The translations under genes and the position numbers were made by a program. From Patescibacteria group bacterium (GTDB lineage Bacteria; Patescibacteriota; Gracilibacteria; UBA1369; PNNO01), in the NCBI GenBank assembly GCA_042568205.1, contig JBHPJE010000004.1:1280-65279 (forward strand): a stretch of DNA of 64,000 nt, written 5' to 3'. Of this stretch, positions 4,243-54,818 are shown piece by piece. Under the pieces are notes generated by a model. The model made no database searches. It had not been told where the DNA came from and saw nothing but the letters and a program-made list of their open reading frames with translations. Position 1 is the stretch's first letter. Each line of letters starts with the position of its first letter.

Positions 4243-4323
4243 ACGGTCTTAACCGTTTAAGACATATGTTAGTTTAGGATATCGAGGCTTTTCTAGGGCG
4301 TTGGTACTCCTAAGTCTAAAAAG

Positions 4324-4356
4324 AAACAGCCCCCCAAGTGGGGGCTGTTTTTTTTG
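4324..4356 (+). terminator. rho-independent terminator
   Basis: Stem AAACAGCCCCC / GGGGGCTGTTT with a 5-nt loop, followed by a T-run ending at 4356. Confidence 0.7.
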
Positions 4357-4524
4357 TTTGATTTTGCGATGAGCACGACGGTGCGAATCGGAAAAGCAAA
4401 TACGACGAAGTCAGCGAGATAGCGAGTTGAAGGCTCGCTATCGCCTAAGACTGAGTGGCCAAACATATAAATTTACAAACAATACTAATTCCATTTAAAA
4501 AACGCCCTAAAAACTAAGAAAATC

Positions 4525-4553
4525 TTGCCAATAAGGGGCAAAGTATATAGAAT
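4525..4553 (+). promoter_or_regulatory. candidate promoter for tRNA-His (TTGCCA-17 nt-TAGAAT)
   Basis: TTGCCA at 4525-4530, 17-nt spacer, TAGAAT at 4548-4553, about 30 nt upstream of the tRNA 5' end. Confidence 0.45.
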
Positions 4554-4584
4554 AGCTTTTGCGTTTAGATACGCTTATTACTAT

Positions 4585-4662
4585 GGTGAGTGTAGCTCAG
4601 TTGGTTAGAGCACCTGGTTGTGGTCCAGGGGGTCGTGGGTTCGAGCCCCATCACTCACCCCA
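4585..4662 (+). tRNA. trnH: tRNA-His (anticodon GTG) with encoded G-1 and CCA
   Basis: Hand-folded cloverleaf: G-1, acceptor GTGAGTG/CACTCAC, D arm GCTC/GAGC, anticodon stem CCTGG/CCAGG with loop TTGTGGT, T arm GTGGG-TTCGAGC-CCCAT, discriminator C, CCA. Confidence 0.95.
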
Positions 4663-4756
4663 TTTATTTAGAGGCGCTGTTTTGGTTTATTTGAAGACGT
4701 TTACGGCGATTCGAGCGAGGAGTAATGAGTATATAGTGATTATATGATGTTCGAAC
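4663..4756 (+). repeat. 94-nt tRNA-His trailer segment X1 (copy 1 of 2), ending in palindrome GTTCGAAC
   Basis: Aligns without gaps to 10878-10971 with 85 of 94 identical positions (hand alignment). Confidence 0.85.
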
Positions 4757-4758
4757 TT

Positions 4759-4787
4759 TTGACATACCTGGATAAAAGCACTATAAT
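4759..4787 (+). promoter_or_regulatory. consensus sigma70 promoter TTGACA-17 nt-TATAAT
   Basis: TTGACA at 4759-4764 and TATAAT at 4782-4787 with a 17-nt spacer, 24 nt upstream of the ATG at 4812. Begins 3 nt after the end of X1. Confidence 0.6.
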
Positions 4788-4811
4788 TCGTCCTCTTTAT
4801 ACTATTATATT

Positions 4812-5819
4812 ATGCCAATAGAAGGATACAGTAAACACGATGAACCAACTTTACACACCGTTGAGCATAACCGAGAAGTTATGTTAATTGGTGAAGGTGA
4901 TTTAAGATTTGAATTTGCATTTATTGATCTTATAGCTAAATGTCAATTTGATTGTCGAGGTTGTTTTAATCAGGTTTTAAATGATACAGGTGTATCGCTT
5001 AGACAAGAAGAATTAAGAAGTATTGTTGATTTTCTTAAAGAAAGAGGTGGGAGGAATATTACTTTTGCAGGATCAGGTGAACCATTATTGGATCCTGAAT
5101 TATTACCGTTAATTGAATATGCTCACGATAAAGGTATCAATTCGATACTATTTTCCAGCTTAACTACTGTTAATGAAGCAAATGAAGTTGTTCCAGTAAG
5201 TTTAGAAATGGTAGAAGCGTTAAATAAGTTAGATGTACATATAGTTGCGAAAAGAAGTTGTATAGATAATGAAAAACAAGCAGAGATTCTGGGTGTTCCT
5301 AATACAGATGTTGGAGATAAAATGAATTTAGCATTACAAAGTCTTATTGATGCAGGCTTTGCTGAAGATGGAAGATTGTTTATGGATTGCCCAATTGATA
5401 GATATACAATTAATGAAATTCCACAATTACTTAGATTCTGTAGAGAAAGAGGCATACTTCCTTATTTTGAATCATATATTATTCACGGACAGGACAAAGA
5501 AACACAAAAAGAATATAGAATAAGTACCAAAGAGCTTGGTCTTTTATTTCAAGAACTTGCAAGGATCGATCAAGAGGAGTTTGGTATTGATATAGAACTC
5601 GGAAAAGGTATGAGAATTTATCACGCTGATGCTTGTTTAAAACCAGAGTATGGTTTTGCTGTTAAGGCTAATGGAGATGTTAGAAGTTGCCCAACAGATG
5701 CTACTAAAGCGGTTGGAAACATTAAAGAATCGGCTCTTGGAGTCATATTATCACCAAACAATGCTGAATATAGAGCAAAGTTTGGCAAATTTGGTTGTTG
5801 CGCAGTACTTAAAATCTAA
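4812..5819 (+). CDS. radical SAM enzyme with C-terminal SPASM/twitch-like region
   Basis: CX3CX2C motif (CQFDCRGC). Later GSGEPLL glycine-rich SAM-binding-like segment. C-terminal GDVRSCPTD...VGNIKE resembles the SPASM/twitch consensus. Confidence 0.8.
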   Translation: MPIEGYSKHDEPTLHTVEHNREVMLIGEGDLRFEFAFIDLIAKCQFDCRGCFNQVLNDTGVSLRQEELRSIVDFLKERGGRNITFAGSGEPLLDPELLPLIEYAHDKGINSILFSSLTTVNEANEVVPVSLEMVEALNKLDVHIVAKRSCIDNEKQAEILGVPNTDVGDKMNLALQSLIDAGFAEDGRLFMDCPIDRYTINEIPQLLRFCRERGILPYFESYIIHGQDKETQKEYRISTKELGLLFQELARIDQEEFGIDIELGKGMRIYHADACLKPEYGFAVKANGDVRSCPTDATKAVGNIKESALGVILSPNNAEYRAKFGKFGCCAVLKI

Positions 5820-5825
5820 ATAACC

Positions 5826-5862
5826 GTTCGAACAAACACTAAACACTCACCCCATTGAAATT
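5826..5862 (+). repeat. att-like repeat R1: GTTCGAACAAACACTAAACACTCACCCCATTGAAATT
   Basis: Identical (37/37) to 10316-10352. Contains CACTCACCCCA, which is the acceptor 3' strand + discriminator + CCA of tRNA-His. Starts 6 nt after the radical SAM stop codon. Confidence 0.85.
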
Positions 5863-6344
5863 TACCAAACCTTAGATAACGCTTTCCTCGTTGCCCTAGG
5901 CAATCCCCCACAAAAAATTAGGTCTCTTAAGTCATTAGTAGTAATTCTTGTAGGATCTAATCCTAAGAGCTTACAGGCGGCACAGTTATCGAAAAATTGA
6001 CTTGGCTGCTCAAGATCACCTAATGGTGCATCAAACGGGCTCATCCCAAGTTCTTCACACTTTTCGTAGAAATATAAATAATACATGCTAAGGTCGTCAT
6101 ATGGACCAAATCCAAGCGCTGCGCACCTTTTTTCATAATCATCCCAGCTTACCCCACAATCATCAACTTCTGAAGCTCTTTCAGCTTCTTCATAATCTCG
6201 TGGTGCTGTAAAATAGTGGTAACGAAATACTGTAGCGGTCTCTGGATCCCAGCCCCACTCTGCACATTTTTCCTCAAAGCCTTCAGGCCTTCGCATTTGT
6301 ACTGCGGTGCAATCTGGCTCATTTTTACAATTGTTTAAAGTCAT
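5862..6344 (-). CDS. hypothetical acidic protein with four C-x-x-[LW]-G-x-x-P repeats (160 aa)
   Basis: ORF with repeats KCAEWGWDP, RCAALGFGP, KCEELGMSP, ACKLLGLDP. Visibly more GC-rich than neighbours. 11 nt downstream of the 769-aa gene. Confidence 0.6.
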   Translation of the reverse strand: MTLNNCKNEPDCTAVQMRRPEGFEEKCAEWGWDPETATVFRYHYFTAPRDYEEAERASEVDDCGVSWDDYEKRCAALGFGPYDDLSMYYLYFYEKCEELGMSPFDAPLGDLEQPSQFFDNCAACKLLGLDPTRITTNDLRDLIFCGGLPRATRKALSKVW

Positions 6345-6355
6345 TATATATTTGG

Positions 6356-8665
6356 TTAATTTTTATCAGGATCGATTTCGCTATCTATTTCTTCTGGTTT
6401 GTAATCTTCTGGTAATTCACTAAGAATATCATCAAAACGCTGCTCGTTAATTATTATTTCTCTAATAACTGGATCTAAATCCATAATTCGTTCTAGCTCT
6501 TCAGTTTGATCAGCATCAAGATGTCCCTGCTGCAATGCTGTATAATAATAATATGCAACGGCTTTTTTTAAATTGATATCGATTTCCATGGCCCTCTCTA
6601 TCATTTCTTTCTCTTCTTCAGTTACAGTTTCTGAGCCATTGCCTGTATATGTCCAAAAAAGGTCTAACATTCTGGCACTCTCTTCCTCAAAACCATTTTC
6701 TCCATATCCTTCTAACATTTTAGTGTATTCATCGCTTAACATTTCACAGTTATACAGATAGGTTAAAAGTCTTATTCCAAGTATTTCTGCTGCACTAATA
6801 GCTTCATCTGAGGCGTTGAGTAAATCAGGATTTAGCAATAAATGAGATATAAAATCTGGACTATCCCCATGTATCTCTGAAGCTTTTATGAGTTTTTCAT
6901 TGCCAGACTTATTACTTCCGATTACAAAACCTCTAACAATTGGGTCTATTCTACATATACTCATTAATTCATCAATTTGGATTGCACTGAGAAGCCCTTT
7001 TTCCCGAGCTTCAAATAAGTATACACCAACAACCCTTTTAAAATCTGGATCGGCATCCATGGCCTTTTTAATAACGTCCTTCTCTATGTCAGCTAGAGTA
7101 GGATGTTCTGGATGGTTCCCTACATATTTTATCATTTGAGTCTTTAAATCTTCACACTCCATTACAAAAGCAACTTTCTCATCTACATCTATCTCATCCA
7201 ATGCTCTAAGTTTTACTCGGGCACCTAAAGTTTTACAAACTTCCATAAGCGCCATAGGGCTAACGTTGAGAAGTTTTGCCGCTTCTATTGCTTCTGGTGT
7301 AGGATTGAGTTTTTCGTCTTCTTCATTATCAACTGCTGATTTTTTACTACTAAATTCACCTTTTTCAGCTTTTTCTATTAATTCTAATGCATCTATTATT
7401 TCAGCTATTTCGTCACTTACGTCAACATCTAAGCTCTCTTCTAAATTTAAAATATCTTCTAAAGTGATTTCTGTTGTATCAAAATTTTGTAAGACCCATT
7501 CATGTAACGAGAGAGCATAGCACTCCTCAAGTGCAAATTTAAAGTCAGGGTCTACTTCCATGGCCTTTTTTAGCCTCTCCTGCTCTTCCTCAGACAATGG
7601 ATTATTGTTGAAGCCTTTGTACGAAAAAATTCTACTCTGAAATTTTCTTACTTCTCTTACAAACTCACAATCAACAGATTTGTCGATTAGCGTCTCTAAT
7701 TCATCCTGCAATTCTTGCCTTACTGTACCTTTTAAATACATTAGTACAAGAGGATTTACCTTAAGAATTTTTGCTGCTTCCAGGGTTTCTGGCTTTCCAT
7801 TTATAAGGCTAGGTTTTTCCATCAATCTCTGAGCACGGTTATTAACGCTTACATCTTCGAACTCAGCTCTTATTCTATTTCTGATATCTCCTGGCTGTCC
7901 TTTGAAAATTTCATTTAATTTTCTTTTCTGCTCTCGATTTGGATATTTATAACCTAAAAATTGAAAGCACCTTATAGTTATGCTTTGTTTAAATTCATAA
8001 CTAAGTTCCATGGCCCATTCAATTTTCACTACTTCCTCATCAGAAATTTTATCATGCATATGAGTCGTATATGCAATAATTGAAGTTGAAAATTTCTTGT
8101 ACTCCTTTGCAAAATCGCATTCAGAGATGTTTTTTATGTCCAAAAAAAGTTTCCCTGCTAATTCACCTTCAAGCTTTAATAAATAAAGTAAATATGTCAG
8201 AGGACTCACACCTAAAATTTCTGCAACTCTCAATTGTTCAGGTGTAGGTTTTAGTGCTTGGGGATCCTTTAATAATTCCTCTATATAGTCTGGATTGTTT
8301 GTTTTAATTGAAGTTCCCTCATTCATTTTTAATGCAAAAGCTGGATCAATCTCTAATGCTTTTTCTATCCTCTCTCTATCTTTATCTTTTAATATTCCTG
8401 GTGGATAAAAACCTCTATATTCTAATGTTTTTTCTGTAAATTCTTGATAATCTCTTACAAATTGACAATCAGGACTGTTGAAAATTTCATCTTCTAACTT
8501 ATCCCTTAAATCATGTGGTAGTAGATTTTCGAAATACATAAGTGCTAAAGTGCTTACTTTCAGCACATGAGCAGCTGCCACGGTTGGTAAAGGAGCGTTT
8601 AGTTTTGTAGAATCAATTAGTAGCTCCTCGATATAGTCAGGATTTGTTGTATCTTTTACTTCCAT
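6356..8665 (-). CDS. hypothetical protein made of five ~120-150 aa repeats, each with an HTH-like A-A-x-[IL]-L-x-V-x-P-[LM] core (769 aa)
   Basis: Internal repeats: NPDYIEELL..AAHVLKVSTLAL / VAEILGVSPLTY / AAKILKVNPLVL / AAKLLNVSPMAL / AAEILGIRLLTY. Each is followed by a C-[EQD]-F-[VA] segment and a KAME[VI]DP-type segment. Confidence 0.8.
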   Translation of the reverse strand: MEVKDTTNPDYIEELLIDSTKLNAPLPTVAAAHVLKVSTLALMYFENLLPHDLRDKLEDEIFNSPDCQFVRDYQEFTEKTLEYRGFYPPGILKDKDRERIEKALEIDPAFALKMNEGTSIKTNNPDYIEELLKDPQALKPTPEQLRVAEILGVSPLTYLLYLLKLEGELAGKLFLDIKNISECDFAKEYKKFSTSIIAYTTHMHDKISDEEVVKIEWAMELSYEFKQSITIRCFQFLGYKYPNREQKRKLNEIFKGQPGDIRNRIRAEFEDVSVNNRAQRLMEKPSLINGKPETLEAAKILKVNPLVLMYLKGTVRQELQDELETLIDKSVDCEFVREVRKFQSRIFSYKGFNNNPLSEEEQERLKKAMEVDPDFKFALEECYALSLHEWVLQNFDTTEITLEDILNLEESLDVDVSDEIAEIIDALELIEKAEKGEFSSKKSAVDNEEDEKLNPTPEAIEAAKLLNVSPMALMEVCKTLGARVKLRALDEIDVDEKVAFVMECEDLKTQMIKYVGNHPEHPTLADIEKDVIKKAMDADPDFKRVVGVYLFEAREKGLLSAIQIDELMSICRIDPIVRGFVIGSNKSGNEKLIKASEIHGDSPDFISHLLLNPDLLNASDEAISAAEILGIRLLTYLYNCEMLSDEYTKMLEGYGENGFEEESARMLDLFWTYTGNGSETVTEEEKEMIERAMEIDINLKKAVAYYYYTALQQGHLDADQTEELERIMDLDPVIREIIINEQRFDDILSELPEDYKPEEIDSEIDPDKN

Positions 8666-8680
8666 AATTTAAGCAGTTAC

Positions 8681-9295
8681 TTAATTATTATAAGCATCCT
8701 TAGTTCTAATATTATGATGATCTAAATACCAATTAAGATTATCTGTGATTGGTTGTTGTAAAATTATATCTTTTGCTCTTTTTCTCCATTGTGCTATTAA
8801 ATCTTTACTAGCCTCAGGAAATTCAGTCATAGCAGCAGAATAACCTACAGTAAAAGATAAAAGAAAACATCTTAATTGCTTTACTTGTGTTTCTCTAAAA
8901 TCTCCACTTTCAATAAGCCCATTTACAACAACTGTTAACTCCTGTTTAGCAATTTTTCGTTTGGTTTCAGCAACGATTTCGTCGATATCTGCTTTCAATT
9001 TTTCTTTTTCTCTTTCCTCTCTCCTTGCTTGAGCTTCTTTCTTTTTAATCTGATCAATAGCCCAATACTTCCATGTTCGGTATGCATAACCTTTAGGATT
9101 ATCCATTTCTCCACCTGATACTATTAAAATCTTCTTATAGAGCACCTCAAGGGTGTTCATATTATATGTAATTTGAGGATAATTAATTGCTATTTCTTCA
9201 ATCCCTTGCTGAATACAAGTAATGAGTAATTTCTTTCTTAAATCTGAAGATTCATCCTGAGTCTCAGTAGCCAAATTGTGTTTAGCGTTTTCCAT
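8681..9295 (-). CDS. hypothetical protein with remote sigma-70/ECF-like features (204 aa)
   Basis: NPKGYAYRTWKYWAIDQIKKK resembles sigma region 2. C-terminal QVKQLRCFLLSFTVGYSAAMTEFPEASKDLIAQWRKRAKDII resembles the region 4 HTH. Similarity judged by eye only. Confidence 0.3.
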   Translation of the reverse strand: MENAKHNLATETQDESSDLRKKLLITCIQQGIEEIAINYPQITYNMNTLEVLYKKILIVSGGEMDNPKGYAYRTWKYWAIDQIKKKEAQARREEREKEKLKADIDEIVAETKRKIAKQELTVVVNGLIESGDFRETQVKQLRCFLLSFTVGYSAAMTEFPEASKDLIAQWRKRAKDIILQQPITDNLNWYLDHHNIRTKDAYNN

Positions 9296-9437
9296 ATATA
9301 TTAGTTAAGTATAAATCTTCGATGAATTGTTGATTTATTCAAGATACAACTTTAATGCCATTCGACACATATGTCAATGAATATATGTCAAATGCTCAAC
9401 TATGACCACTTTTTATGCTTGAATATACAATTTATTC

Positions 9438-9478
9438 TGTCAACAAATTTTGACAACATGCGCATTTAATGATAGAAT
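9438..9478 (+). promoter_or_regulatory. promoter TTGACA-17 nt-TAGAAT overlapped by inverted repeat TGTCAA-N6-TTGACA
   Basis: TGTCAA at 9438-9443 and TTGACA at 9450-9455 (also the -35), TAGAAT at 9473-9478, ATG at 9507. Two further ATATGTCAA direct repeats at 9369-9377 and 9383-9391. Confidence 0.45.
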
Positions 9479-9506
9479 GTGTTCATATATATAATTTAAA
9501 TTACTA

Positions 9507-10310
9507 ATGATAGAGAATATCCTCAAAAACATTGGCCTAAAACGAAAGGAAATTAAAATTTACCTAGCTTTATTGCCTCTTGGTAGCGCTCCTGCCTCTG
9601 TATTAGGTAAACAAACCAACATTAGTAGAAGCACCGCTCATTACACCTGCAAACAACTTGAACAAAAGGGCCTTGTAAGTTCTACTTTTAAAAAAAATAC
9701 TGATTATTTTAATGCTGAGCCACCTGATAAATTACAATTAATTGTGGATAGAAAAATAAAAAAATTGGAGGTTGATAAAGAAGAACTACATCGGATGTCG
9801 AGTAATTTGATGAGGTTGATTAATCCTCAAGCAGTTTTGCCAAAAATGCGCTTCTACGAAGGTGTTGACGGATTAATATCATTATTTAATGATGAGTTAA
9901 CCTTAAAGGAAGATGAAATTTTATATGGGGCGCATAGATACTTTAGGGATTCCCCAAAAGAATTGGTAGATTACTTTCAAAATACTTATGATAAAAAGAG
10001 AGAAAAACAAAAATACCAGTCATATTCAATTAGGACAAATATACCAGAGGCTATTGAAAGAAGTAAGTTAGACAAGGTAATAAATCGGACATCACTTTTT
10101 ATTCCTGAAAAAGAATTCCCTTTCGAATCCTCTTTTCAAATCTATAAGAATAAAATTGTATTTTATTCTTTACAAAAATCAGATTTAACAGGAGTACTTA
10201 TAGAAAATGATCATATGAAAACAACAATGCTAAGTTTATTTCGCATGGCCTGGAATTATGCAAAAACCCTTAAAATCAACAAAGGTTTCAAGAATATTCC
10301 AACTTTATAA
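9507..10310 (+). CDS. TrmB-family transcriptional regulator
   Basis: N-terminus LKNIGLKRKEIKIYLALLPLGSAPASVLGKQTNISRSTAHYTCKQLEQKGLVS matches the TrmB winged-helix pattern. Length is typical of the family. Confidence 0.7.
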   Translation: MIENILKNIGLKRKEIKIYLALLPLGSAPASVLGKQTNISRSTAHYTCKQLEQKGLVSSTFKKNTDYFNAEPPDKLQLIVDRKIKKLEVDKEELHRMSSNLMRLINPQAVLPKMRFYEGVDGLISLFNDELTLKEDEILYGAHRYFRDSPKELVDYFQNTYDKKREKQKYQSYSIRTNIPEAIERSKLDKVINRTSLFIPEKEFPFESSFQIYKNKIVFYSLQKSDLTGVLIENDHMKTTMLSLFRMAWNYAKTLKINKGFKNIPTL

Positions 10311-10315
10311 TTCCT

Positions 10316-10352
10316 GTTCGAACAAACACTAAACACTCACCCCATTGAAATT
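10316..10352 (+). repeat. att-like repeat R2 (identical to R1)
   Basis: GTTCGAACAAACACTAAACACTCACCCCATTGAAATT, starting 5 nt after the TrmB-like stop codon. Confidence 0.85.
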
Positions 10353-10359
10353 GGCTTGT

Positions 10360-10803
10360 TTAAGCTGTTTTCGGTCTTTTCATTAACACTTTTGGACAAG
10401 TCCCCTCTCTATTATGACCAGTGATTTCAAAACCATGTTTTTTATAGAAAGATATTGCTCTATCGTTATTCTCATAAGTGTCTAAGTGTATTTCTTTACC
10501 TTTCTGAATTAAATCATTAAGAAGTTTTGAACCTATTCCAAGACTTTGATATTCAGGTAGGATATTGAGCAATCCTAGATGAATAATGTTGTTTTTTTCA
10601 GACCAACTAATTAAACCTATCTTTTTATTTTTATAAAAAACTATCTTATCTCTTTCATAATTGATCTTTTTGGGAATCTCTTTTTTTTCTTTTTCTTCAT
10701 CCCAAGGCTTATATTGTTCAATTATAGATTTAATTGTAGCTTTCCTAATTAAAAAATAGAATTCTGATTCATCTTTTTCGACATTTTTTAATTCAATATC
10801 CAT
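10360..10803 (-). CDS. GNAT-family N-acetyltransferase
   Basis: Acetyl-CoA binding-type motif YQSLGIGSKLLNDLIQKGK and C-terminal NDRAISFYKKHGFEITG. Confidence 0.8.
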   Translation of the reverse strand: MDIELKNVEKDESEFYFLIRKATIKSIIEQYKPWDEEKEKKEIPKKINYERDKIVFYKNKKIGLISWSEKNNIIHLGLLNILPEYQSLGIGSKLLNDLIQKGKEIHLDTYENNDRAISFYKKHGFEITGHNREGTCPKVLMKRPKTA

Positions 10804-10848
10804 ATATATTATTAAATGTATACAAATTTATATTAAATCATAAAACCA

Positions 10849-10971
10849 GTTCGAACAAATACTAAACACTCACCCCATTTATTTAGAGGCGCTGTTTTGG
10901 TTTATTTGAAGATGTTTGCGGCGGTTTGACCGAGGAGTGATGAGTATGTAGTGATTATGCGATGTTCGAAC
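10849..10971 (+). repeat. att-like repeat R3 (29 nt) fused to X2, the second copy of the 94-nt tRNA-His trailer
   Basis: GTTCGAACAAATACTAAACACTCACCCCA at 10849-10877 has 1 mismatch to R1. It continues exactly as the sequence after the tRNA does (TTTATTTAGAGGCGCTG...) through GTTCGAAC at 10964-10971. Confidence 0.85.
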
Positions 10972-11104
10972 TTTTTGCCATATCTCATAATTGATGTTAA
11001 ATTCAAATTGTTTGTTGGATAATGAACGTCACAACCAAAAAGTGTAGGCGTTCGTTCAATACAACGCCTGCTCTTTGAAGACTCACGCAGAAAGAGAAAA
11101 AAAT

Positions 11105-11395
11105 ATGCCTGCTAAACCGAACACACCTCCACCTAAGATTCAAGTTAACACTGGGCAGAATACATTAAAAACTAACTGCTTGGCTGGTGCTTGGGGTAGA
11201 AATGATGGTGAAGACTCCATCGAAGGTTGCAAAGGTGATGCTAGCCATGAAGCAGTTTACGATGAGCTGTGGTCATTGAGATGCTGTAGCAATCCTGCCT
11301 GCCAGGAGTGGGCCAAAGGATATGTCGTCCGCGAAAGGAACAGAAACACCGTTCCAACTCTTCGTGGCGCACTGCAAGGCAAAATCGAGCTTTGA
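11105..11395 (+). CDS. small Cys-rich hypothetical protein (96 aa) in a GC-rich patch
   Basis: ATG at 11105 preferred over the TTG at 11075. Six Cys (..NCLAGAW..EGCKGD..LRCCSNPACQEW..). Local G+C visibly higher than surrounding DNA. 6-bp hairpin ACGATG..CATCGT follows the stop. Confidence 0.5.
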   Translation: MPAKPNTPPPKIQVNTGQNTLKTNCLAGAWGRNDGEDSIEGCKGDASHEAVYDELWSLRCCSNPACQEWAKGYVVRERNRNTVPTLRGALQGKIEL

Positions 11396-11484
11396 GCAGG
11401 AGTCAACTTACGATGAAGCGTGAGCATCGTGAGTTTGACCTAAATCAGTTTATTTGTCATATTCCCAAACCTTAATTTAGTTTC

Positions 11485-11825
11485 ATGAAAGGTGTAAAAA
11501 TTTCGAATGCTTACAATGCGGTATTTGTTGTTATACTCCACGCATTGATTTTGGTAACGGTGTAGTGAAGCCTCCAATGACTCCATGTAATTTTCTTGAA
11601 GTAGAAGAAATTAAAGATAGAGCATTAAGTGCTGCAAATTGTACTATACATGATAAAAAGCGACCTGATATTTGTGAAGATTTCACAAACAGTCAGTTTG
11701 GAGGACCATGTACAAGAGGACTTTTCTTTTGGAAAGAACATGTAGATAGAAATTTAGTTGATCTTGATAAAATTCCAGAAAAAGTACGTTTAATACTAGA
11801 AGGCATTTATAGTAGGACATCTTAA
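11485..11825 (+). pseudogene. YkgJ/UPF0153-type CxxCxxCC Fe-S/zinc protein, interrupted by a frameshift in an A5 run
   Basis: ATG at 11485 reads MKGVK, then goes out of frame at the A-run 11496-11500. The frame of track ORF 11565..11825 is open back to 11481 and encodes ..CKNFECLQCGICCYTPR.., i.e. the family signature lies upstream of any in-frame start. One extra A would give an intact ORF. Confidence 0.6.
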
Positions 11826-11829
11826 AACT

Positions 11830-11866
11830 GTTCGAACAACGTGTAAACACTCACCCCATTGAAATT
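11830..11866 (+). repeat. att-like repeat R4 (33/37 identical to R1)
   Basis: GTTCGAACAACGTGTAAACACTCACCCCATTGAAATT, starting 4 nt after the stop at 11825. Confidence 0.8.
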
Positions 11867-11940
11867 CGCTTTTTTGAGCTGTAGTTGTACATTAAATTCA
11901 AAATGGTATAATTTTATAATGTTAATTAACAATTATCCAC

Positions 11941-12231
11941 ATGGAAACAAAAGTTGTAAAATTTGAAATCGGAAAAATCTTAGCAATAATCATTGTAGTA
12001 ATTGCAATTGCAGTGCTAGCAAGTTTTGTTGTTAAAAGTACGTTTTTCGGAGGTAACATTAAAACTGCACCTATTGAGCCTTTAATTGAAAAGATTGAGT
12101 TTGATCCAACAAAGCATGAGCTTGATAAAACCTTTATAATTGATGAAAGCATTAATGTGCCAATCAATTCTGGTGATGAATTATTAGATCAAGATGCTGA
12201 CTTTAAGCCAGAATTTGAATCGCCAAAGTAA
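11941..12231 (+). CDS. small single-pass membrane protein (96 aa)
   Basis: TM segment ILAIIIVVIAIAVLASFVV followed by an acidic tail. Preferred over antisense ORF 11922..12167. Confidence 0.5.
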   Translation: METKVVKFEIGKILAIIIVVIAIAVLASFVVKSTFFGGNIKTAPIEPLIEKIEFDPTKHELDKTFIIDESINVPINSGDELLDQDADFKPEFESPK

Positions 12232-12250
12232 GCTACGATGGCGCTCTTTT

Positions 12251-12817
12251 TTATTCTCCTTTTAATATTTTTCTAAGTGCTTTATATGCTTCTTTATATT
12301 GCTTAGCGAAAGCTTCGCCATCCTCTTTAGTAACGTGTGTGATATTTGGTATTTGATATTGTGGCTCAAAAGAACATGCGTCCCGAATCTCTTTTGGAAG
12401 TAATTTTGCAAATGTATTTAGTCTTTCACTGCCATAGCCACTACTTAATCCTGTTTCTGGGTCAACATACAAAATAGTTAGACATTCTCCTTGTTTTATT
12501 TCTTCAGGAGTGTACATAGTCCCATCATTCTCGCATGGAAACGCCCCTAGAAGTAATTTACAACCTTTAGGGTATTTTTCTCTTAAATTTCTAAAATTTT
12601 GTTTAAAATAATCTAATTTTGCTTCGAGTAATTCGTCAGACATAAAATCATCACCATATACCTCAAACACTTCTTGTAAATCCTCTAATGGTATTGATTC
12701 TGCTTGATCAACAGATATTGGGACTCCTGCATTATTGTATTCGACGAGGCGTTGCGACTCATTCAATATTGTCATTGCAACTATTGCATCACTTTGATTA
12801 AATTCTAATTTATTCAT
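12251..12817 (-). CDS. acidic hypothetical protein (188 aa), downstream partner of the giant kinase-domain gene
   Basis: ORF starting 24 nt downstream of the stop of the 1962-aa gene on the same strand. No motif recognised. Confidence 0.65.
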   Translation of the reverse strand: MNKLEFNQSDAIVAMTILNESQRLVEYNNAGVPISVDQAESIPLEDLQEVFEVYGDDFMSDELLEAKLDYFKQNFRNLREKYPKGCKLLLGAFPCENDGTMYTPEEIKQGECLTILYVDPETGLSSGYGSERLNTFAKLLPKEIRDACSFEPQYQIPNITHVTKEDGEAFAKQYKEAYKALRKILKGE

Positions 12818-12841
12818 ATGTTTTTATGTTATTTATATTAA

Positions 12842-15800
12842 TTAAAGTTGATCAACTACATTTTGTAAAGATATATAATCCGGATCTCTGCTGCCGTCAG
12901 GTTTAAATTCTGTAGGATGGTTTCTGACATCTCTTAGTTTATTAGCTAGATCATACAATTTTTTCGCACTTGCAGGCGCATCTTCATTCAAAGTATAACT
13001 ATGATCCCAATCATCATCGGGTTTTGTCTTTGTAACATGTCCTCTTGCTTTTAGTCTTTCTAAAATAGTAGATCCTACTCCATATTTATCTCCGGCATCA
13101 ACCGGCAATTTACCGCTAACAGAATCTGAAATTAATTGCGGATTATGATAAAGGGCAGTAAATCCCACATTATACATTTGACCATCCTTTCCTTTAAAGA
13201 ATGGAATTTCAACTAAATTCCCTTGGATTTCAACTTGAAATACTGTAAGCCCACCAGCTTTATCCAATTTCCCAAAATTAGATTGCCTTGTCATACTACC
13301 TATATCGATAAGCTCGCCTGTATTAACCAACTTCCCTTCAGCGTTTTTTATTTTACCAATAACAACATTTGCGGGTTTTAAATCATTATGCGCCATCCCT
13401 TTTACGTGTAAAGAAATAGCTCCCTTGCACATTCCTTTTAAAACTTGTGAAAATTCCTTATCACTCAATGTTCCTAATTTTGACTCTAATTCATGCGATT
13501 CTCCTTTAATATCAGACACCTTTTCGTAAAGAATAAATCCTTTTGTTCTAAAAACAGGTTTTGCTATATGTGCATCACCAGGATGAGGACCATGTTCTTG
13601 ACTAGCTTGTGAATAATCTCCAACATTAAAGTGTTCATAATCAAATTGGGGTTTTGCTTCAGTATTACCCGGAATTAATATCTTATATGCCCCTTCTTTT
13701 AATTTATTAGACGGTTTAATTACATACCATGTTTCAAAAGCTACACCTATTCCACCCTCTTCACCCAATTGCTTTCCTTTATACATTCTTATTGTTCGAC
13801 CGTTTTCGTCTGTATGCTCTGTTGCTCCTTTTAGCATTGCTCTTATCATTTTCTCGTTTGCAATTTCTGGATTTGCCTTAAGAATCGCTTTATCATCTGG
13901 TGTTAATTCATGTCTCTTTTTCCCAGTTTCTATTAATTTATTTATTTGATCAGGACTCATCCCCTCAAACAATTTTGCTAAATTTTCCTTCATCATTGAA
14001 TCAAGTTTCGGTCTGATTCTTTTACCATGAGGATTAAACTCAGTACCAACATAAGCAATTAACAATTGTTTAAAATCTTTACCATCTTTTGATGTTCCAT
14101 TTATCAAATCAGCTAAATCAACAGCATTTTCTGAATTGAACTCAACACCATTTGCTTTTAATTGTGTAAGAGCTCTAACAAAGGCCTTACCTTTCATTAA
14201 CCGTACATCTAATGATGGGAATTCAGAATTATCGGATAAGTTTCCAAATCTTCCTGCATGTTTTTCCAAACCAAAATCGCGTAATTTTCCAACAACATCA
14301 CTAACTTCATCAGCTACTTGTTGTAAACGATCAAGTTCAGCAACTCTTTCCTGCAAAGTTGTAAATCTTGATTTATCACTATAATTAGTAACTTGCTTAA
14401 CTTCAGCTCCTAAACTTCTTATTCTTAAACTATCAGCTTTAAATTGAATTTCTCCATGTAGTTGAATAAGCTCTTTGACTATTTTTTGCCTTTGTTTTAA
14501 TGACTTCATTTGCCGCCCGGTACTTGTCATGAAAGATAGTTCCTTATTTGATATTTCTTTTGCTAAATCGTGCAAACTAATTTTTTCTAATTCTACTCTT
14601 AGCTTATCTAATTCAATTTGTACCATTTTGTCAGGTGCCTCTGCTCTCTTTGGTTCATATTTAATACCTTTAATACTTGCGGCTTTTGGTTGTGCTTTAG
14701 GAAATAAATCTACATTTCCACCTGATGCTGGCTCTCCTTGAACAAGTGTTCCTGCGGCTCTTGCTTCAGGCGAACCTATAGCTGGAGGTTTAGATGAAGA
14801 AGGAGGAGAGGGTTGTGCAGTTGAACCAGCCCATTCAATATTTGTCTTTCCTCTGATTTGATTCACAGATTTAAATTCAGGGATAGGGCCACAACCCATA
14901 GCTCCAAGTTTTTGAGTTGGTATAATTTTTATATCTAGTAAAAGTTTTGGTATTTTTTTCGCGTATTTAGTCAAACCATACTTTTTGTTAAATTTAGACA
15001 TAGAACCACCACAATCTTGCACCAATAGCGCAAAGGCTTCTCTTATGGTTTTGTTTTTGAAGTATTTAACAATCCTTACTTTATTCTTTACGAAGAATCT
15101 TTCGGCTTTCCTTCTATCGGCTATTTGCTGTTCTGACATAATTGCTGTTCCTTTTGGAAGTTTTACTTTAATTTCAACTCCTCCTTTTCTAATACTTACT
15201 GTCCCATCTTGATTCTGTATTGCTAAAAATCCTCGTTCTCTTAACTCTAGAATTGTTTCCTGATAATCTTCTTTATTTTTGAATGTATATTCGCCTTTTT
15301 TATTCTTAGTAAGATTTGGGATTCTTGTAATTTCTGCCTGAGGTGTTAAATTCTCGCTTTGTTTAGCAGGTTTAACTTCAAAAGCAGAGATTTCCTTATC
15401 TATAACTTTGCCATCCTTCCCTCTAACTTTTGTTTTAAGATAAATAAATACATTTTTATTTTTATCAATTTTATAACTAAAGTGTTGATCAGGCTTACTT
15501 CCAAATTTTGCAGCTAAATTTTGTACAAACTGTTTAGGATTTGCAGTTGTATAAACGAAATTATTTCCTTCGGTTGCAAATCCTACATCTGTAGCACCAA
15601 TTCCGTGTAAAGCTAATTGTGTATGTGGACTTTTAGAACAACCTATTGCCGAAACTATCCATCCTACATACGGATTTGTTCTTTCAGCACCTTCTTCGAA
15701 ACCCTCCTGACCTAATTCTCTACTAAAATCTCTAAAAGTACTATTTTTACCCTGAATATAATTTTCAGGATCTAAAAATTTACCAATACTTTGAATTTTT

Positions 15801-18730
15801 TTAAGTCCAAACTTTCCAAAGCCTTTATAAAATCTATTTGGTGATTTTGCCAACCTAGTGAGACCAGACATGGCTCCTCTAGCTGCATAAACTGCACTCA
15901 TACTCATTGCAAAACCAATAGCAAAATCTTTAGCTAAACCTTTTGCTTCCCAAATTTTCTTAAATCCACCATAATCAATAGCTCCGGTAGCTTGAAATGC
16001 TGACATTGCAAGTCTTGATCCAACAGCTCCTCCTGCTGATGCTCCAGCCATACTAGTTGAAGTAACTAAGAATTGCTGTACCCCTGCACTCGCTACACGA
16101 GCAAATAACCTTTGGCCAAGTGCTGCAAAAGCAGATCCACCTACCATTGCAGTAGCAACAGCTGTAGTTAAAATTGCTACATTTGCAATACTAGTTGCAA
16201 ATTCAGTCATAACTTTTTTATCAAGTGCGTTTTTAAGCTCTAATCTTTGAAGTGAGAGCTTAGTATCAAATCCTGAACCATAAATCGCTTTTTCATCATT
16301 ATGCATCTTCATAATTTTATCTCGAGCGACTTTAATATTTTTCTTTATTTGATCTCTTAATTGTGGACTATTTTTGTATTTTTGATTCGCCGCAAGAGAT
16401 GTTTTCCCTAATTCTACCCATTTAGCAAATAAGAAATCGTTTGCTTTTTCACTATGATTCGCTGCTTCTCCATATAATTTAATTGCTTTTTCATATCCAA
16501 AAGTAAAAGGCGTTGTAGGATTCTTCATAACAATTGCAATTGCATTAACCTTCCTTACTGCTTCATTAACATGCCCATCTTTACTAAATAGCTTAGTTTC
16601 AATTTCATCGAAGGGTTTTGAAAGTTCAGCTTTAACGAACGGTTGAATCAATTCAGAACTAGCTAAATTTTCATATTTAGATAAATTCTGTGTGACATTT
16701 AAGAAAATATTTAAAGCCTTGAGCTTTTCACCGTAAATATCAGCTCCTTTTCCTACAGTATCAGCAGTCTCACCCAAACTTTCATCAAAACGTTTAATTC
16801 CATGTGTATGTACTACTTCTCCAACACCTTTTCCTGTTCTGTACGTCCTAACATTATTACCATTCTTTTTAAGTATCTCCTTGAATGTTTTTCCCTTAGG
16901 CTCATTAAGCATTGCTGCCATTTTAAAATCCTGACAAATTTTTAAATATTTTGAATCTAATTTCCTTAGTAAATGCAACATTGAACCATATCCGATCAAC
17001 CTTGCTTTAACTTGTTCTTGTTTCTCAACAGGTTTAATATCAAATATTGTTTTATTCTCAGGCGGAGATTTACTAACAGTTTTGAAAAAATCTTCATGTT
17101 CTTGCATAGTCATACTAATTTGGGACATAGCATTCCGAGTATTCACAGCTTTCCGCTGTATAAGTTCCAAGTTTGTTTTCTTATCCCATGAAGGTGTTGT
17201 TTCAAGTTTCCCTGTTTTATAAAAATCATTATGAAATTCACGATAGAGGTCCCCATGTTCTCCTTCAAAGAGTCCAGAGGGATTATCTAAACTAATTAAT
17301 TCTTTTTCAGCAAGTATTGCTTGGTAACTACTAAACAAAGGAGACATTGGAATTTTGTGCTCTTTTGAAAACTTCTTTAATCCATTTAAATTTTCGGTAT
17401 CATTAAATTTACGTTGGCCAAAATATCCCAACATAGCACTAATATTTGCTTTTGTATCTTCTGATTTAAGATTAGTTGATGGTTTAGCTATGTACTTTTT
17501 CGTCATATCTTTAGCCATGTCCAAAAAAATCCTTAATGAATCCAGAGATTTTAACTTTAGTTTCTGTTGAACAATACTTTTTTGATGTTTAAGAATTTTA
17601 TCATCAACCTCATCTTTAGCATCATATTCTCGATATATTTGAAGTTGTTCAATTTCTTTTTTTAACTTTGAAGCACGTTGATTTCTATCCTTCTCAAGAT
17701 TAGTTTTATTTCTTATGTATTCTTTTTCTATATACATTGATTTTTTTGTATATTCAGCTGAACCACCCTTCATTAATGAGTGGTCAAAGATAAATCGAAG
17801 TAATTGCTTTGGTGGCATTTCTTTTGCCATTATCGCAAATTCTTTAGGGTTGAGTTTTTTCAAATATGCAACTTTTGCAAGAATAAATTGAGTTACTTTT
17901 GACTTAGGTATCCCAATGGATTCATACGCTGCCATTAGTCTATTAACTTGATGTAGCTCTAATCTAATCCCCTGACCTTCAACAGAATTTCGAATTTTCA
18001 AAAATTTTTCCTGAAACTTTTGTTGTTTTTTGAATTCTTTGAATATTTTCTCACCTGCTGAAATATTCCCATTACAGTAATGGCCAAGCATACTAAATAC
18101 TTGTGCTCTCTCACCTTTAGAAAAGAGTTTAGTTTGTACCCTAAAATCACTCGAAATAATATCTGCATCTAATTTGTTTTGTATTGTTTTATGTTGAAAA
18201 AATATTTTTATAGTCTCTTTCATTCGACTTTTAATCGTTTTAAGAGGGACTCTTTTTGAACTAGGCGTTCGTACATAAGCTTCAGCATATTGAGCAAACA
18301 TTTTTTTACCAATATTGCTATTTAAGAAATCATAATTAGTAATTGATTCTCTTATTGCATTAAAATCAAGTCGCGCTTTATGTGTTTCTATTTTTTTTCT
18401 TAAAGTTACTGTTCTAACTTTCAATTTGCTTTCAAACACGGCCATCTTTAAATTACCAGATGCCAATTTCCTAATTGCAGCAACCATATCTTTCAAATAT
18501 GCTTGCTTTTGTGCATCAACTATCTTGCCATGCTTATCAAGACCTTTTGTTTCATTCCATGCTCCTTTTGCAGCATCAGCCCATTTAGAAACTTCTTTAT
18601 GATGTTTTGCTAAATACTTAATTGTTCTTCCACGAAACTTAGTCCATTCTGCCTTAGTTTTAACTCCTTCAGGCTTTTTTTCTGGATCTATAAAAAGTTT
18701 TACTGCTCCTGCTACATCGTCAAATGGCAT
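12842..18730 (-). CDS. giant multidomain protein (1962 aa) with C-terminal Hanks-type protein kinase-like domain
   Basis: Last ~318 aa (nt ~12845-13798) contain a G-loop-like LGEEGGIGVAF, AYKIL (Lys), the catalytic loop HNDLKPAN (nt 13367-13390) and LIDIGS in place of DFG. A central Gly/Ala-rich hydrophobic block lies at nt ~15880-16200. The N-terminal ~1000 aa are Lys-rich. Confidence 0.85.
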   Translation of the reverse strand: MPFDDVAGAVKLFIDPEKKPEGVKTKAEWTKFRGRTIKYLAKHHKEVSKWADAAKGAWNETKGLDKHGKIVDAQKQAYLKDMVAAIRKLASGNLKMAVFESKLKVRTVTLRKKIETHKARLDFNAIRESITNYDFLNSNIGKKMFAQYAEAYVRTPSSKRVPLKTIKSRMKETIKIFFQHKTIQNKLDADIISSDFRVQTKLFSKGERAQVFSMLGHYCNGNISAGEKIFKEFKKQQKFQEKFLKIRNSVEGQGIRLELHQVNRLMAAYESIGIPKSKVTQFILAKVAYLKKLNPKEFAIMAKEMPPKQLLRFIFDHSLMKGGSAEYTKKSMYIEKEYIRNKTNLEKDRNQRASKLKKEIEQLQIYREYDAKDEVDDKILKHQKSIVQQKLKLKSLDSLRIFLDMAKDMTKKYIAKPSTNLKSEDTKANISAMLGYFGQRKFNDTENLNGLKKFSKEHKIPMSPLFSSYQAILAEKELISLDNPSGLFEGEHGDLYREFHNDFYKTGKLETTPSWDKKTNLELIQRKAVNTRNAMSQISMTMQEHEDFFKTVSKSPPENKTIFDIKPVEKQEQVKARLIGYGSMLHLLRKLDSKYLKICQDFKMAAMLNEPKGKTFKEILKKNGNNVRTYRTGKGVGEVVHTHGIKRFDESLGETADTVGKGADIYGEKLKALNIFLNVTQNLSKYENLASSELIQPFVKAELSKPFDEIETKLFSKDGHVNEAVRKVNAIAIVMKNPTTPFTFGYEKAIKLYGEAANHSEKANDFLFAKWVELGKTSLAANQKYKNSPQLRDQIKKNIKVARDKIMKMHNDEKAIYGSGFDTKLSLQRLELKNALDKKVMTEFATSIANVAILTTAVATAMVGGSAFAALGQRLFARVASAGVQQFLVTSTSMAGASAGGAVGSRLAMSAFQATGAIDYGGFKKIWEAKGLAKDFAIGFAMSMSAVYAARGAMSGLTRLAKSPNRFYKGFGKFGLKKIQSIGKFLDPENYIQGKNSTFRDFSRELGQEGFEEGAERTNPYVGWIVSAIGCSKSPHTQLALHGIGATDVGFATEGNNFVYTTANPKQFVQNLAAKFGSKPDQHFSYKIDKNKNVFIYLKTKVRGKDGKVIDKEISAFEVKPAKQSENLTPQAEITRIPNLTKNKKGEYTFKNKEDYQETILELRERGFLAIQNQDGTVSIRKGGVEIKVKLPKGTAIMSEQQIADRRKAERFFVKNKVRIVKYFKNKTIREAFALLVQDCGGSMSKFNKKYGLTKYAKKIPKLLLDIKIIPTQKLGAMGCGPIPEFKSVNQIRGKTNIEWAGSTAQPSPPSSSKPPAIGSPEARAAGTLVQGEPASGGNVDLFPKAQPKAASIKGIKYEPKRAEAPDKMVQIELDKLRVELEKISLHDLAKEISNKELSFMTSTGRQMKSLKQRQKIVKELIQLHGEIQFKADSLRIRSLGAEVKQVTNYSDKSRFTTLQERVAELDRLQQVADEVSDVVGKLRDFGLEKHAGRFGNLSDNSEFPSLDVRLMKGKAFVRALTQLKANGVEFNSENAVDLADLINGTSKDGKDFKQLLIAYVGTEFNPHGKRIRPKLDSMMKENLAKLFEGMSPDQINKLIETGKKRHELTPDDKAILKANPEIANEKMIRAMLKGATEHTDENGRTIRMYKGKQLGEEGGIGVAFETWYVIKPSNKLKEGAYKILIPGNTEAKPQFDYEHFNVGDYSQASQEHGPHPGDAHIAKPVFRTKGFILYEKVSDIKGESHELESKLGTLSDKEFSQVLKGMCKGAISLHVKGMAHNDLKPANVVIGKIKNAEGKLVNTGELIDIGSMTRQSNFGKLDKAGGLTVFQVEIQGNLVEIPFFKGKDGQMYNVGFTALYHNPQLISDSVSGKLPVDAGDKYGVGSTILERLKARGHVTKTKPDDDWDHSYTLNEDAPASAKKLYDLANKLRDVRNHPTEFKPDGSRDPDYISLQNVVDQL

Positions 18731-18732
18731 TT

Positions 18733-18987
18733 TTATTTTTTAAATTTATTAATATATTTTTTTGTAATTTTATCAACTTCTTCATGTAAATCATCCTCTA
18801 AATCATCCTCAAATATAAGTGTTAATGCTGTATCTAAGTCTTTTTTTTGATTATTTTTAAAATAGGTGTAAATCTTTTTCATTTCTTCCTGGTTTAGATC
18901 ATCTAAAAGCTCAATCCATTTAGATTTTTCAGATTCATCAATAAAATCAACACTATTGATCAAATTTTTTAATTTTTGTTTTAACAA
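18733..18987 (-). CDS. small acidic hypothetical protein (84 aa), upstream partner of the giant gene
   Basis: TTG-initiated track ORF whose stop lies 2 nt before the ATG of the 1962-aa gene. Start codon is uncertain. Confidence 0.45.
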   Translation of the reverse strand: MLKQKLKNLINSVDFIDESEKSKWIELLDDLNQEEMKKIYTYFKNNQKKDLDTALTLIFEDDLEDDLHEEVDKITKKYINKFKK

Positions 18988-19175
18988 AGTTTATTTTGGT
19001 TACATTTTATCTAAATATTATAACAAAAATTACACAAATTTACAATGCTCAAACAGGCATTTATTGTTTATTTAAAAACACTTTTAGAGACTTGACCTAA
19101 TTTTGTAACGGCTAACATCGCATTTCGTTTTAATAGGTGTTAGAATAAGTCGAATATTTAATTAACCTTTTATAT

Positions 19176-49347: not shown

Positions 49348-49361
49348 ATTATTTAAATTAT

Positions 49362-53804: not shown

Positions 53805-53866
53805 TATTTTATTTTAATTTTTCCTTATATTATAGCAGAAAATTAAGGTTTTTTCAATTGTAAATG

Positions 53867-54811: not shown

Positions 54812-54818
54812 ATTTGAT

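Follow-up and report, generated by a model that had tools for sequence, protein, structure and literature searches.

Known integration arrays and the tRNA-His locus

The closest described case to the locus reported here is that of the ssrA islands of Dehalococcoides, which lie in tandem downstream of a small stable-RNA gene and are bounded by a 20-bp direct repeat of its 3' end, with a conserved motif just upstream of the repeat that is not alignable to the RNA gene (McMurdie et al. 2011, PMC3146451). Beside attL, the reverse strand encodes a CcrB-like large serine recombinase, and 15 islands devoid of an integration module have been interpreted as cis-mobilizable (PMC3146451). The present locus lies in a 64-kb window of a Patescibacteria group bacterium genome (the whole stretch of contig JBHPJE010000004.1 that was analysed, to which all positions refer), where a tRNA-His gene is followed by four further copies of its 3' end (R1 to R4) that delimit four small cassettes (A to D). 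Each repeat joins a 22-nt arm, termed R-left, to a tRNA-derived core, beyond which one of two trailer sequences, T1 or T2, is found in whole or in part. The array probably consists of segments gained through serial site-specific integration at tRNA-His, for which an enzyme of the large serine recombinase (LSR) family is suggested. The motif upstream of the ssrA repeat is comparable to R-left. In contrast to those islands, the target is tRNA-His and not the tmRNA gene, the host belongs to a Patescibacteria lineage, the R-type segments are far smaller (0.5-4.5 kb, 1-4 genes), an integration module is present in 0 of 10 of them, the integrase-bearing elements at the site having other arms, and a second, small serine recombinase of the DsiA/CcrA kind was not observed.

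In staphylococci, the Ccr large serine recombinases of the staphylococcal cassette chromosome (SCC/SCCmec) target the 3' end of rlmH (orfX), which is essential. SCC arrays are tandem and bounded by direct repeats copying that 3' end, pseudo-SCC elements lacking ccr are mobilised in trans, and element sizes are usually 3-60 kb. Tandem organization, direct repeats of the target 3' end and recombinase-less cassettes are all shared with the tRNA-His locus, yet the SCC target is protein-coding. Cis-mobilizable elements (CIMEs) related to the streptococcal integrative conjugative elements (ICEs) of the ICESt1/ICESt3 family keep attL and attR, are devoid of integration and transfer genes, and occur in tandem with elements sharing their att sites (PMC5704250). 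Cassettes A to D are likewise att-flanked and without integration or transfer genes. However, CIMEs are decayed ICEs or integrative mobilizable elements (IMEs), most of them with tyrosine integrases, whereas no remnant of a larger element is seen here and no conjugation genes occur in or beside the array, the open reading frames (ORFs) with T4SS-pilin domains being 38 kb away (49362-55952). Composite transfer of the CIME kind would explain the duplicated T2 of the present locus. Integrons, in turn, encode the tyrosine recombinase IntI beside attI and recombine attC sites that are folded single-stranded. The tRNA-His locus resembles them in the stacking of small, mostly single-gene, recombinase-less units of diverse cargo at one site that abuts or overlaps stop codons, but differs in having no adjacent integrase, a repeat that does not fold, and several cassettes with a promoter of their own.

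Candidate-phyla bacteria have tiny genomes with few recognised mobile elements, and gene acquisition in them is poorly understood; the locus at tRNA-His provides a defined hotspot for it. Serial site-specific integration and CIME- or SCC-like arrays are known already. New are the tiny, tightly packed and never autonomous cassettes, several with their own promoters, the tRNA-His target and the Patescibacteria host; a full-text literature search recovered no paper combining Patescibacteria, serine recombinase, tRNA and integrative.

Repeats of the tRNA-His 3' end

The components of the array, in order along the window, are:

4586-4662, plus strand: tRNA-His (GTG), called by ARAGORN and matched by the Rfam tRNA family (65.5 bits); left half of the integration site
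4663-4770, plus strand: T2a, native-trailer copy, from the core through GTTCGAAC (4749-4756) plus the -35 box
5826-5862, plus strand: R1, R-left (candidate attP-type left half-site) with core and 8 nt of T1
10316-10365, plus strand: R2 with full T1, a 50-bp attP-like site, GTTCGAACAAACACTAAACACTCAC joined to CCCATTGAAATTGGCTTGTTTAAGC
10849-10877, plus strand: R3, R-left with core, 1 mismatch, joined to native-type trailer
10878-10985, plus strand: T2b, second native-trailer copy, ending in GTTCGAAC (10964-10971), then a promoter-like site
11830-11879, plus strand: R4 with T1, attP-like, farthest from the tRNA and most diverged

The last 11 nt of tRNA-His, CACTCACCCCA (4652-4662), constitute the core and occur five times in the window (4652, 5844, 10334, 10867 and 11848), always on the plus strand, a count reached by 0 of 100 shuffled sequences. 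A previous interpretation of this DNA from its letters alone (hereafter, the sequence-only reading) had claimed that the tRNA 3' end recurs four more times within a 37-nt unit, and both the tRNA call and the pattern counts confirm it. The unit GTTCGAACAAACACTAAACACTCACCCCATTGAAATT is the same letter for letter in R1 and in R2 (10316-10352), while R3 carries one mismatch before continuing as the tRNA trailer and R4, with four, keeps 33/37 positions over 11830-11866. Mismatches therefore grow with distance from the tRNA, which fits insertion next to it, older junctions being pushed outward. Also as described before, the stop codons of plus-strand ORFs precede R1, R2 and R4 by 6, 5 and 4 nt, respectively, and the minus-strand ORF 5862..6344 terminates at the final base of R1. 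The end of this gene replaces the remainder of T1. In the R2-T1 junction the two outer motifs are inverted relative to each other, and each lies at 25 nt from the centre.

All four repeats share one orientation and lie at most 7.3 kb from tRNA-His, with 0 copies in the remaining 52 kb of the window. When the R-left pattern GTTCGAACAANNNNYAAACACTCAC was searched with up to 3 mismatches, the 4 matches obtained in the 64 kb were R1 to R4. The palindrome GTTCGAAC is seen 6 times, against 0.23 expected, all within the tRNA-His locus: 4 in the R copies and 2 at the ends of the trailer copies. The trailer itself is duplicated, 4652-4760 and 10867-10975 being 92% identical over 109 nt.

The repeats are very probably genuine att-site junctions left by serial site-specific integration at tRNA-His. 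A short functional or selfish element (a terminator, a REP-like sequence or a tRNA-like 3' tag) that resembles the tRNA end by chance would suit the single orientation of all copies and the location of R1, R2 and R4 4-6 nt after plus-strand stops, but it is an extremely unlikely explanation. The scattering of the unit after unrelated genes, which the sequence-only reading had named as the mark of such an element, was looked for, and R-left is absent outside the tRNA-His locus in the 64 kb. Neither a terminator-like site at any R nor an Rfam match for R was found, R does not fold as RNA any better than shuffled sequences do (z from -1.1 to +1.0), R also adjoins minus-strand genes, and the R-T2 junctions mirror the attR of integrase-bearing elements described below. 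A dispersed repeat or terminator was rejected on the lack of copies elsewhere, of a terminator and of folding beyond shuffles; a known RNA family was likewise discarded for R and for T2, Rfam finding the tRNA only.

R as a candidate att site

The anatomy of R was derived from the alignment of 19 junctions. R-left (22 nt) reads GTTCGAACAA-NNNN-YAAACACT, followed by CACC, and both of its blocks are conserved in 5 genomes, around a 4-nt linker that varies (ACAC, ATAC, CGTG, AGGT, AGGG, AAAT); together with the core, it can be written as the profile GTTCGAACAA-N4-YAAACACTCACCCCA. In the junction table, the distance from its start to CACC is 22 nt for GTTCGAAC of R-left and 17 nt for the T-loop of tRNA-His, GTTCGAGC, an offset of 5 bp. 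In serine integrases, the outer (ZD) motif is located 5 bp nearer the centre in attB (~40 bp) than in attP (~50 bp) (PMC3783163). The offset between R and the tRNA agrees with this attP/attB rule, as a match at the level of sequence. R-left, with its conserved outer and inner motifs on either side of a variable linker, looks like an LSR attP half-site, and the likeness between GTTCGAAC and the T-loop is probably functional, the predicted role being that of an outer recombinase-binding motif. That the unit begins with a sequence resembling the T-loop had been recognised in the sequence-only reading; the likeness is real, and is refined here to a candidate binding motif displaced by 5 bp.

R-left and T1 jointly form a 50-bp dyad, GTTCGAACAA...CAC/CCCA...TTGTTTRAGC, which recurs across genomes and whose outer 10 nt, read by hand, mirror each other at 7/10 positions in R2, R4 and the R of a related metagenome contig (L002, see below).

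The same locus in related genomes

Relatives were fetched via the flanking peptidase protein and via DNA pattern scans. The peptidase, encoded upstream of tRNA-His, shares 100% identity with a protein assigned to a Patescibacteria group bacterium and has homologs named Peregrinibacteria or Gracilibacteria; the G+C content of the window is 34%. In every relative contig reaching that far, tRNA-His is found beside the peptidase gene, and the DNA after the tRNA differs each time. Loci containing R are organized as follows, flank identity being given where available:

L009/L010 (flank identity 67%): tRNA, TTAAAATTGGCTTGTTTGAGC (T1), 278-aa gene, R, TTTATTTAAAGGTACTGTTTT (T2), ParE toxin-antitoxin pair, decayed R
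L008 (flank identity 87%): tRNA joined to T1, 496-aa gene, R
L002 (metagenome contig starting inside the tRNA-His 3' end): T1, GNAT gene, R joined to T1, two genes, decayed R
L001 (single-cell genome): R upstream of a DUF4215/SLH - subtilase - M15 peptidase neighbourhood, the same as beyond the variable region of the window

In total, 10 R-type cassettes were recognised in 5 genomes. Differing cargo is found at the same tRNA-derived core in L002, L008 and L009, and also in L011, L015 and L019, where elements bearing an integrase occupy the site. The cross-genome comparison that the sequence-only reading had proposed thus shows cargo that varies and is bounded exactly at the tRNA-derived core, and the serial integration at tRNA-His postulated there is supported both by this variation and by integrase-bearing elements at the same site in three relatives. 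The most distal R copies are broken in L002 (core CACTCATGCCA) and in L009 (CCA missing). The latter copy was considered as a marker of the crossover and discarded, being better read as an R-T1 junction with a 3-nt deletion. The R-T2 junction is identical over 37 nt in the window and in L009, although the flanking peptidases are just 67% identical, a degree of conservation above the neutral expectation that points to either site constraint or recent transfer.

For the window proteins from 4.8 to 19.0 kb, no homologs exist in the loci of the relatives, and the region from 4663 to ~19175 is therefore lineage-specific. Its distal part is:

11880-19175: lineage-specific DNA without R, with pilin-like 96-aa, 188-aa, 1962-aa giant and 84-aa ORFs

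This segment reaches a conserved DUF4215/SLH gene that also comes after the tRNA-His locus of relatives (synteny in L009, L019 and L001). The product of the giant ORF (12842-18730, minus strand) is matched only weakly by a protein-kinase-like domain (residues 1743-1794) and by PD-T4-6 of PADLOC, and has no homolog in any related locus.

Pattern scanning of the genome collection gave one match, L001, in the syntenic locus, and that of metagenomes gave one, L002, starting in the tRNA-His 3' end, besides a chance match in a G+C-rich genome (L003) that was set aside. Viral contigs, scanned with the R pattern and both LSRs, yielded nothing useful. Assembly breaks near the locus add to the case for serial integration: five contigs from independent assemblies (L006, L007, L020-L022) stop after the peptidase gene and before tRNA-His, and no tRNA was called on them. 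A further six contigs from different sequencing runs (L025-L030) encode an identical peptidase (P0008) and all stop exactly 21 nt past its stop codon, before tRNA-His is reached, a recurrent assembly break.

Large serine recombinase elements at tRNA-His

The gene beside tRNA-His in L004/L005/L011 (flank identity 85%), L015-L018 and L019 (a complete 1.37-Mb genome, flank identity 65%) is a minus-strand LSR gene. Its 492-499 aa product contains the Resolvase (PF00239) and Recombinase (PF07508) domains, and additionally a zinc ribbon (PF13408) in L019, and its final codons, stop included, are encoded by the tRNA-His 3' end. The elements to which these genes belong are 8-10 kb in length and occur at tRNA-His in three lineages. 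Their backbone encodes, besides the LSR, proteins of 382 aa and 418 aa and a SpoVG-like product; L011 and L015 are the only ones in which an HTH_17 gene was called. The cargo differs, consisting of a type III or a type I restriction-modification (R-M) system or of an AAA_15 system; one kept backbone with R-M (type III or type I) or AAA_15/YaaC-like cargo is also apparent when L013 is included with L004/L011, L015 and L019, the L013 element, in which no methylase was called, having a restriction-subunit gene of reduced length. The LSR elements look like a mobile defence-island family in Peregrinibacteria. In one lineage, the hotspot alternates between integrase-bearing elements (R-M in L011 and L015, AAA-ATPase in L019) and tiny recombinase-less cassettes with a 22-nt arm.

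At their far ends, these elements carry the core again, as ACTCACCCCA, AGTCACCCCAT or CACCCCA, the last of which, from L019, represents the minimum shared core. In L011 and L019 the far end is then followed by ~100 nt homologous to the window trailer. The P arms, GTTCGGAAC in L019 or GTTTAG(T/G)AAC in L011 and L015, start 22-23 nt before CACC and have the outer motif in common with R-left. No LSR in the relatives was tied to an arm of the R-left type, and among NCBI-sourced homologs of the LSRs no cluster name pointed to the present genome.

An LSR is the likely enzyme, by a modest preference suggested by site geometry and by occupancy of the core. A tyrosine recombinase with its gene in another part of the genome (a tRNA-targeting integrase or a Xer-type enzyme, compare integrative mobile elements exploiting Xer, IMEX, and pdif modules) could have achieved the same serial build, the LSR elements being merely other users of the same hotspot. 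Tyrosine integrases classically target tRNA 3' ends, and the choice of site therefore speaks for such an enzyme, as do the 11-13 nt that R shares with the tRNA, which exceed what a serine recombinase needs, the LSR-element arms, not identical to R-left or T1, and the lack of an LSR in the window. Yet no tyrosine recombinase was found in the window or in the tRNA-His loci of the relatives, R is devoid of a 6-8 bp spacer between 9-13 bp inverted arms at the core, the outer motif and its 5-bp offset suit LSR geometry, and LSRs are present at exactly this core in three independent lineages; a tyrosine enzyme is accordingly held to be unlikely.

The T2 trailer and junction types

T2 represents the native trailer of tRNA-His (the B' arm), because it follows the attR of the LSR elements of L011 and L019, and R3-T2b is therefore a junction of the attR type. 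The R2-T1 and R4-T1 junctions are internal ones of the attP type, as tandem integration creates.

Several features of T2 were recorded. It is kept over ~100 nt (L011 945-1066, minus strand; L019 20640-20760) while the flanking proteins are 65-85% identical. A stem of ~10 bp can form between an internal T-loop sequence, GGTTCGAGC, and the terminal GTTCGAAC, and the last 22 nt correspond to an inverted, degenerate R-left at 16-18 of 22 positions. T2 might serve recombination as an accessory site for the recombinase, control a promoter as its operator, or represent a fossil att site. A crossover at GTTCGAAC, with cassettes A and D inserted into a palindrome formed by the T2 end and R-left, was rejected, since T2 homology passes GTTCGAAC into the -35 box in 4/4 copies and no inverted copies of the arms are seen in the flanks on the cassette side.

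Proposed mechanism

In the favoured reconstruction, recombination would have occurred repeatedly at the tRNA 3' end, with the crossover placed within CACCCCA. Each R would comprise an element-side arm (R-left) and the tRNA-derived core, marking the right end of one inserted segment; new segments would enter beside the tRNA, so that distal junctions would be the older and more decayed. The enzyme would be an LSR of the family found at tRNA-His in the relatives, acting in trans, or in cis by accretion, and binding an attP of ~50 bp (R-left with T1) and an attB of ~40 bp (tRNA with T2), the outer motif GTTCGARC being 5 bp farther out in the former. We infer the action of an LSR on R, the position of the crossover, the present mobility of the cassettes and the origin of the duplicated T2 from this arrangement. 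Cassettes A to D, which have core-containing sites at their borders and encode no recombination or transfer function, would be non-autonomous and CIME-like.

The left end of the array requires a further step. Accreted elements are known to form composite tandems that can excise and transfer as a unit (PMC5704250). Most simply, a 6.2-kb composite (T2a-A-R1-B-R2-C-R3left) may have come from a related genome, by excision at a tRNA core and an R core, and re-integrated here, which would explain why T2a and T2b are 92%, and not 100%, identical.

Several observations weigh against this reconstruction. As the sequence-only reading had stated, no integrase, excisionase or transposase is encoded at the repeats: Pfam found no recombinase or transposase among window ORFs of at least 130 aa, a result that covers the 64-kb window only, and the serine recombinase of a relative, used as a tblastn query, had no match in the window. 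A recombinase is also missing from the R-type cassettes of all 5 genomes (0 of 10), and the window shows no trace of the backbone genes of the LSR elements (tblastn). The P and P' arms of those elements are unlike R-left and T1 outside the outer motif; the symmetry of the dyad is statistically modest for any single site; and the outer T1 motif is missing from R1 and from the R copies of L008 and L001. The left end of the array is a tRNA-T2 junction, whereas a single attB x attP event predicts tRNA-T1, and would thus require a composite or re-integrated segment. Finally, tandem insertion into an occupied site would need a relaxed, Ccr-like specificity. Serine integrases normally recombine attP with attB only.

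The absence of a backbone trace makes a simple decay of LSR elements unlikely, and the cassettes as decayed LSR elements were rejected, tblastn finding neither the LSR nor the backbone genes. More generally, the decay of larger elements does not easily explain tiny packed cassettes, which leaves room for a dedicated, trans-served cassette system. R-left with T1 could then define a dedicated class of miniature cassettes in Peregrinibacteria-like bacteria of the candidate phyla radiation (CPR), never encoding a recombinase, often with a promoter of their own, and captured, stacked and exchanged at tRNA-His by a trans-acting LSR, a possibility that we regard as doubtful. If true, it would constitute an integron analogue with serine-recombinase chemistry and a tRNA-derived site. 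Mobilisation in trans would make the cassettes a minimal unit of horizontal gene transfer, one serine integrase serving many non-autonomous cargoes, and the att sequences with the associated integrases are candidates for genome-engineering toolkits.

Cassette cargo

The cargo of the four cassettes, with the promoter of cassette A, is:

4759-4787, plus strand: sigma-70-type promoter upstream of the radical SAM gene, TTGACA, 17-nt spacer, TATAAT, 12/12 consensus positions
4812-5819, plus strand: cassette A, radical SAM/SPASM enzyme (Pfam)
5862-10310: cassette B, three minus-strand ORFs (160, 769 and 204 aa) and, on the plus strand at 9507-10310, a TrmB-type helix-turn-helix (HTH) protein
10360-10803, minus strand: cassette C, GNAT acetyltransferase (Pfam), its stop codon within the outer motif of T1
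11075-11825, plus strand: cassette D, G+C-rich Cys-rich ORF (11075-11395) and CxxCxxCC (YkgJ-like) frame (11486-11825)

The assignments of the radical SAM/SPASM, TrmB-type HTH and GNAT proteins made in the sequence-only reading were confirmed by Pfam, and the consensus promoter and the G+C-rich stretch of cassette D (46% at 11000-11400 versus 34% in the whole window) also hold. For the second frame of cassette D, the two parts of the earlier claim fared differently. A frameshift is plausible, as the CxxCxxCC frame has no in-frame start and an ATG lies in the neighbouring frame beside an A5 run (~11496-11500); the frame is probably shifted at that run, near 11496, and would be either a real pseudogene or the product of a homopolymer sequencing error. 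The YkgJ-like label is weak, the match to PF03692 (E = 0.054) falling under the curated cut-off.

The three minus-strand ORFs of cassette B have no family match, and the proteins of this cassette are without homologs in the loci of the relatives. When the cassette proteins were compared with PADLOC, just the generic radical-SAM-core and HTH models matched, and with PHROGs every match was weak or generic (radical SAM, acetyltransferase). The nearest homologs of the radical SAM enzyme, at 72% and 60% identity, are encoded in unrelated genomes without R or tRNA-His; by their contexts, these are ordinary chromosomal genes with no R. The cargo appears to be horizontally acquired and foreign, because the relatives of the radical SAM gene reside in unrelated genomes lacking R and cassette D reaches 46% G+C.

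An integron-like platform, which the sequence-only reading had named as the alternative to serial integration, would offer another explanation for such units, a host recombinase shuffling single-gene cassettes of the form P' - promoter/ORF - R-left, with R-left in the place of attC and the tRNA end in that of attI. All 10 R-type cassettes are of 0.5-4.5 kb, with 1-4 genes and no recombinase, their cargo is unrelated and partly foreign, and R-left is conserved where flanking proteins are 67-87% identical. Stop codons, moreover, occur 0-11 nt before R-left or within it, the TAA of CTAAAC serving as the stop codon of the L008 gene and of the L002 helicase, and minus-strand genes end 1-16 nt past the core. 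Against a platform of this kind, genomes with R-type cassettes have no recombinase gene beside it, the arrays, of 1-4 cassettes, are short, the same cassette was never seen in two contexts, R has no attC-like fold, and the tight packing may only mirror the compact genomes of these bacteria. We consider it very unlikely, and retain serial integration as the origin of the array; that several cassettes come with their own promoter was noted above as a difference from integrons.

Other features of the window

Within cassette B, the 769-aa ORF (6356-8665, minus strand) contains an internal repeat of ~470-500 nt at 6566, 7037 and 7538, the copies of which have TCCATGGCC in common, with no protein family match. 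Upstream of the array, ~230 nt of non-coding DNA of higher G+C (4356-4585) separate a strong bidirectional terminator (4319-4355) from tRNA-His, and gave sub-threshold Rfam matches only (MCS4, leader peptides). At the other side of the window, a minus-strand cluster of ORFs of 314-1480 aa (47095-55952) includes 3 with T4SS-pilin domains and 2 with repeated PKD domains (47095-53804); these probably encode surface or pilus proteins unlinked to the tRNA-His array.

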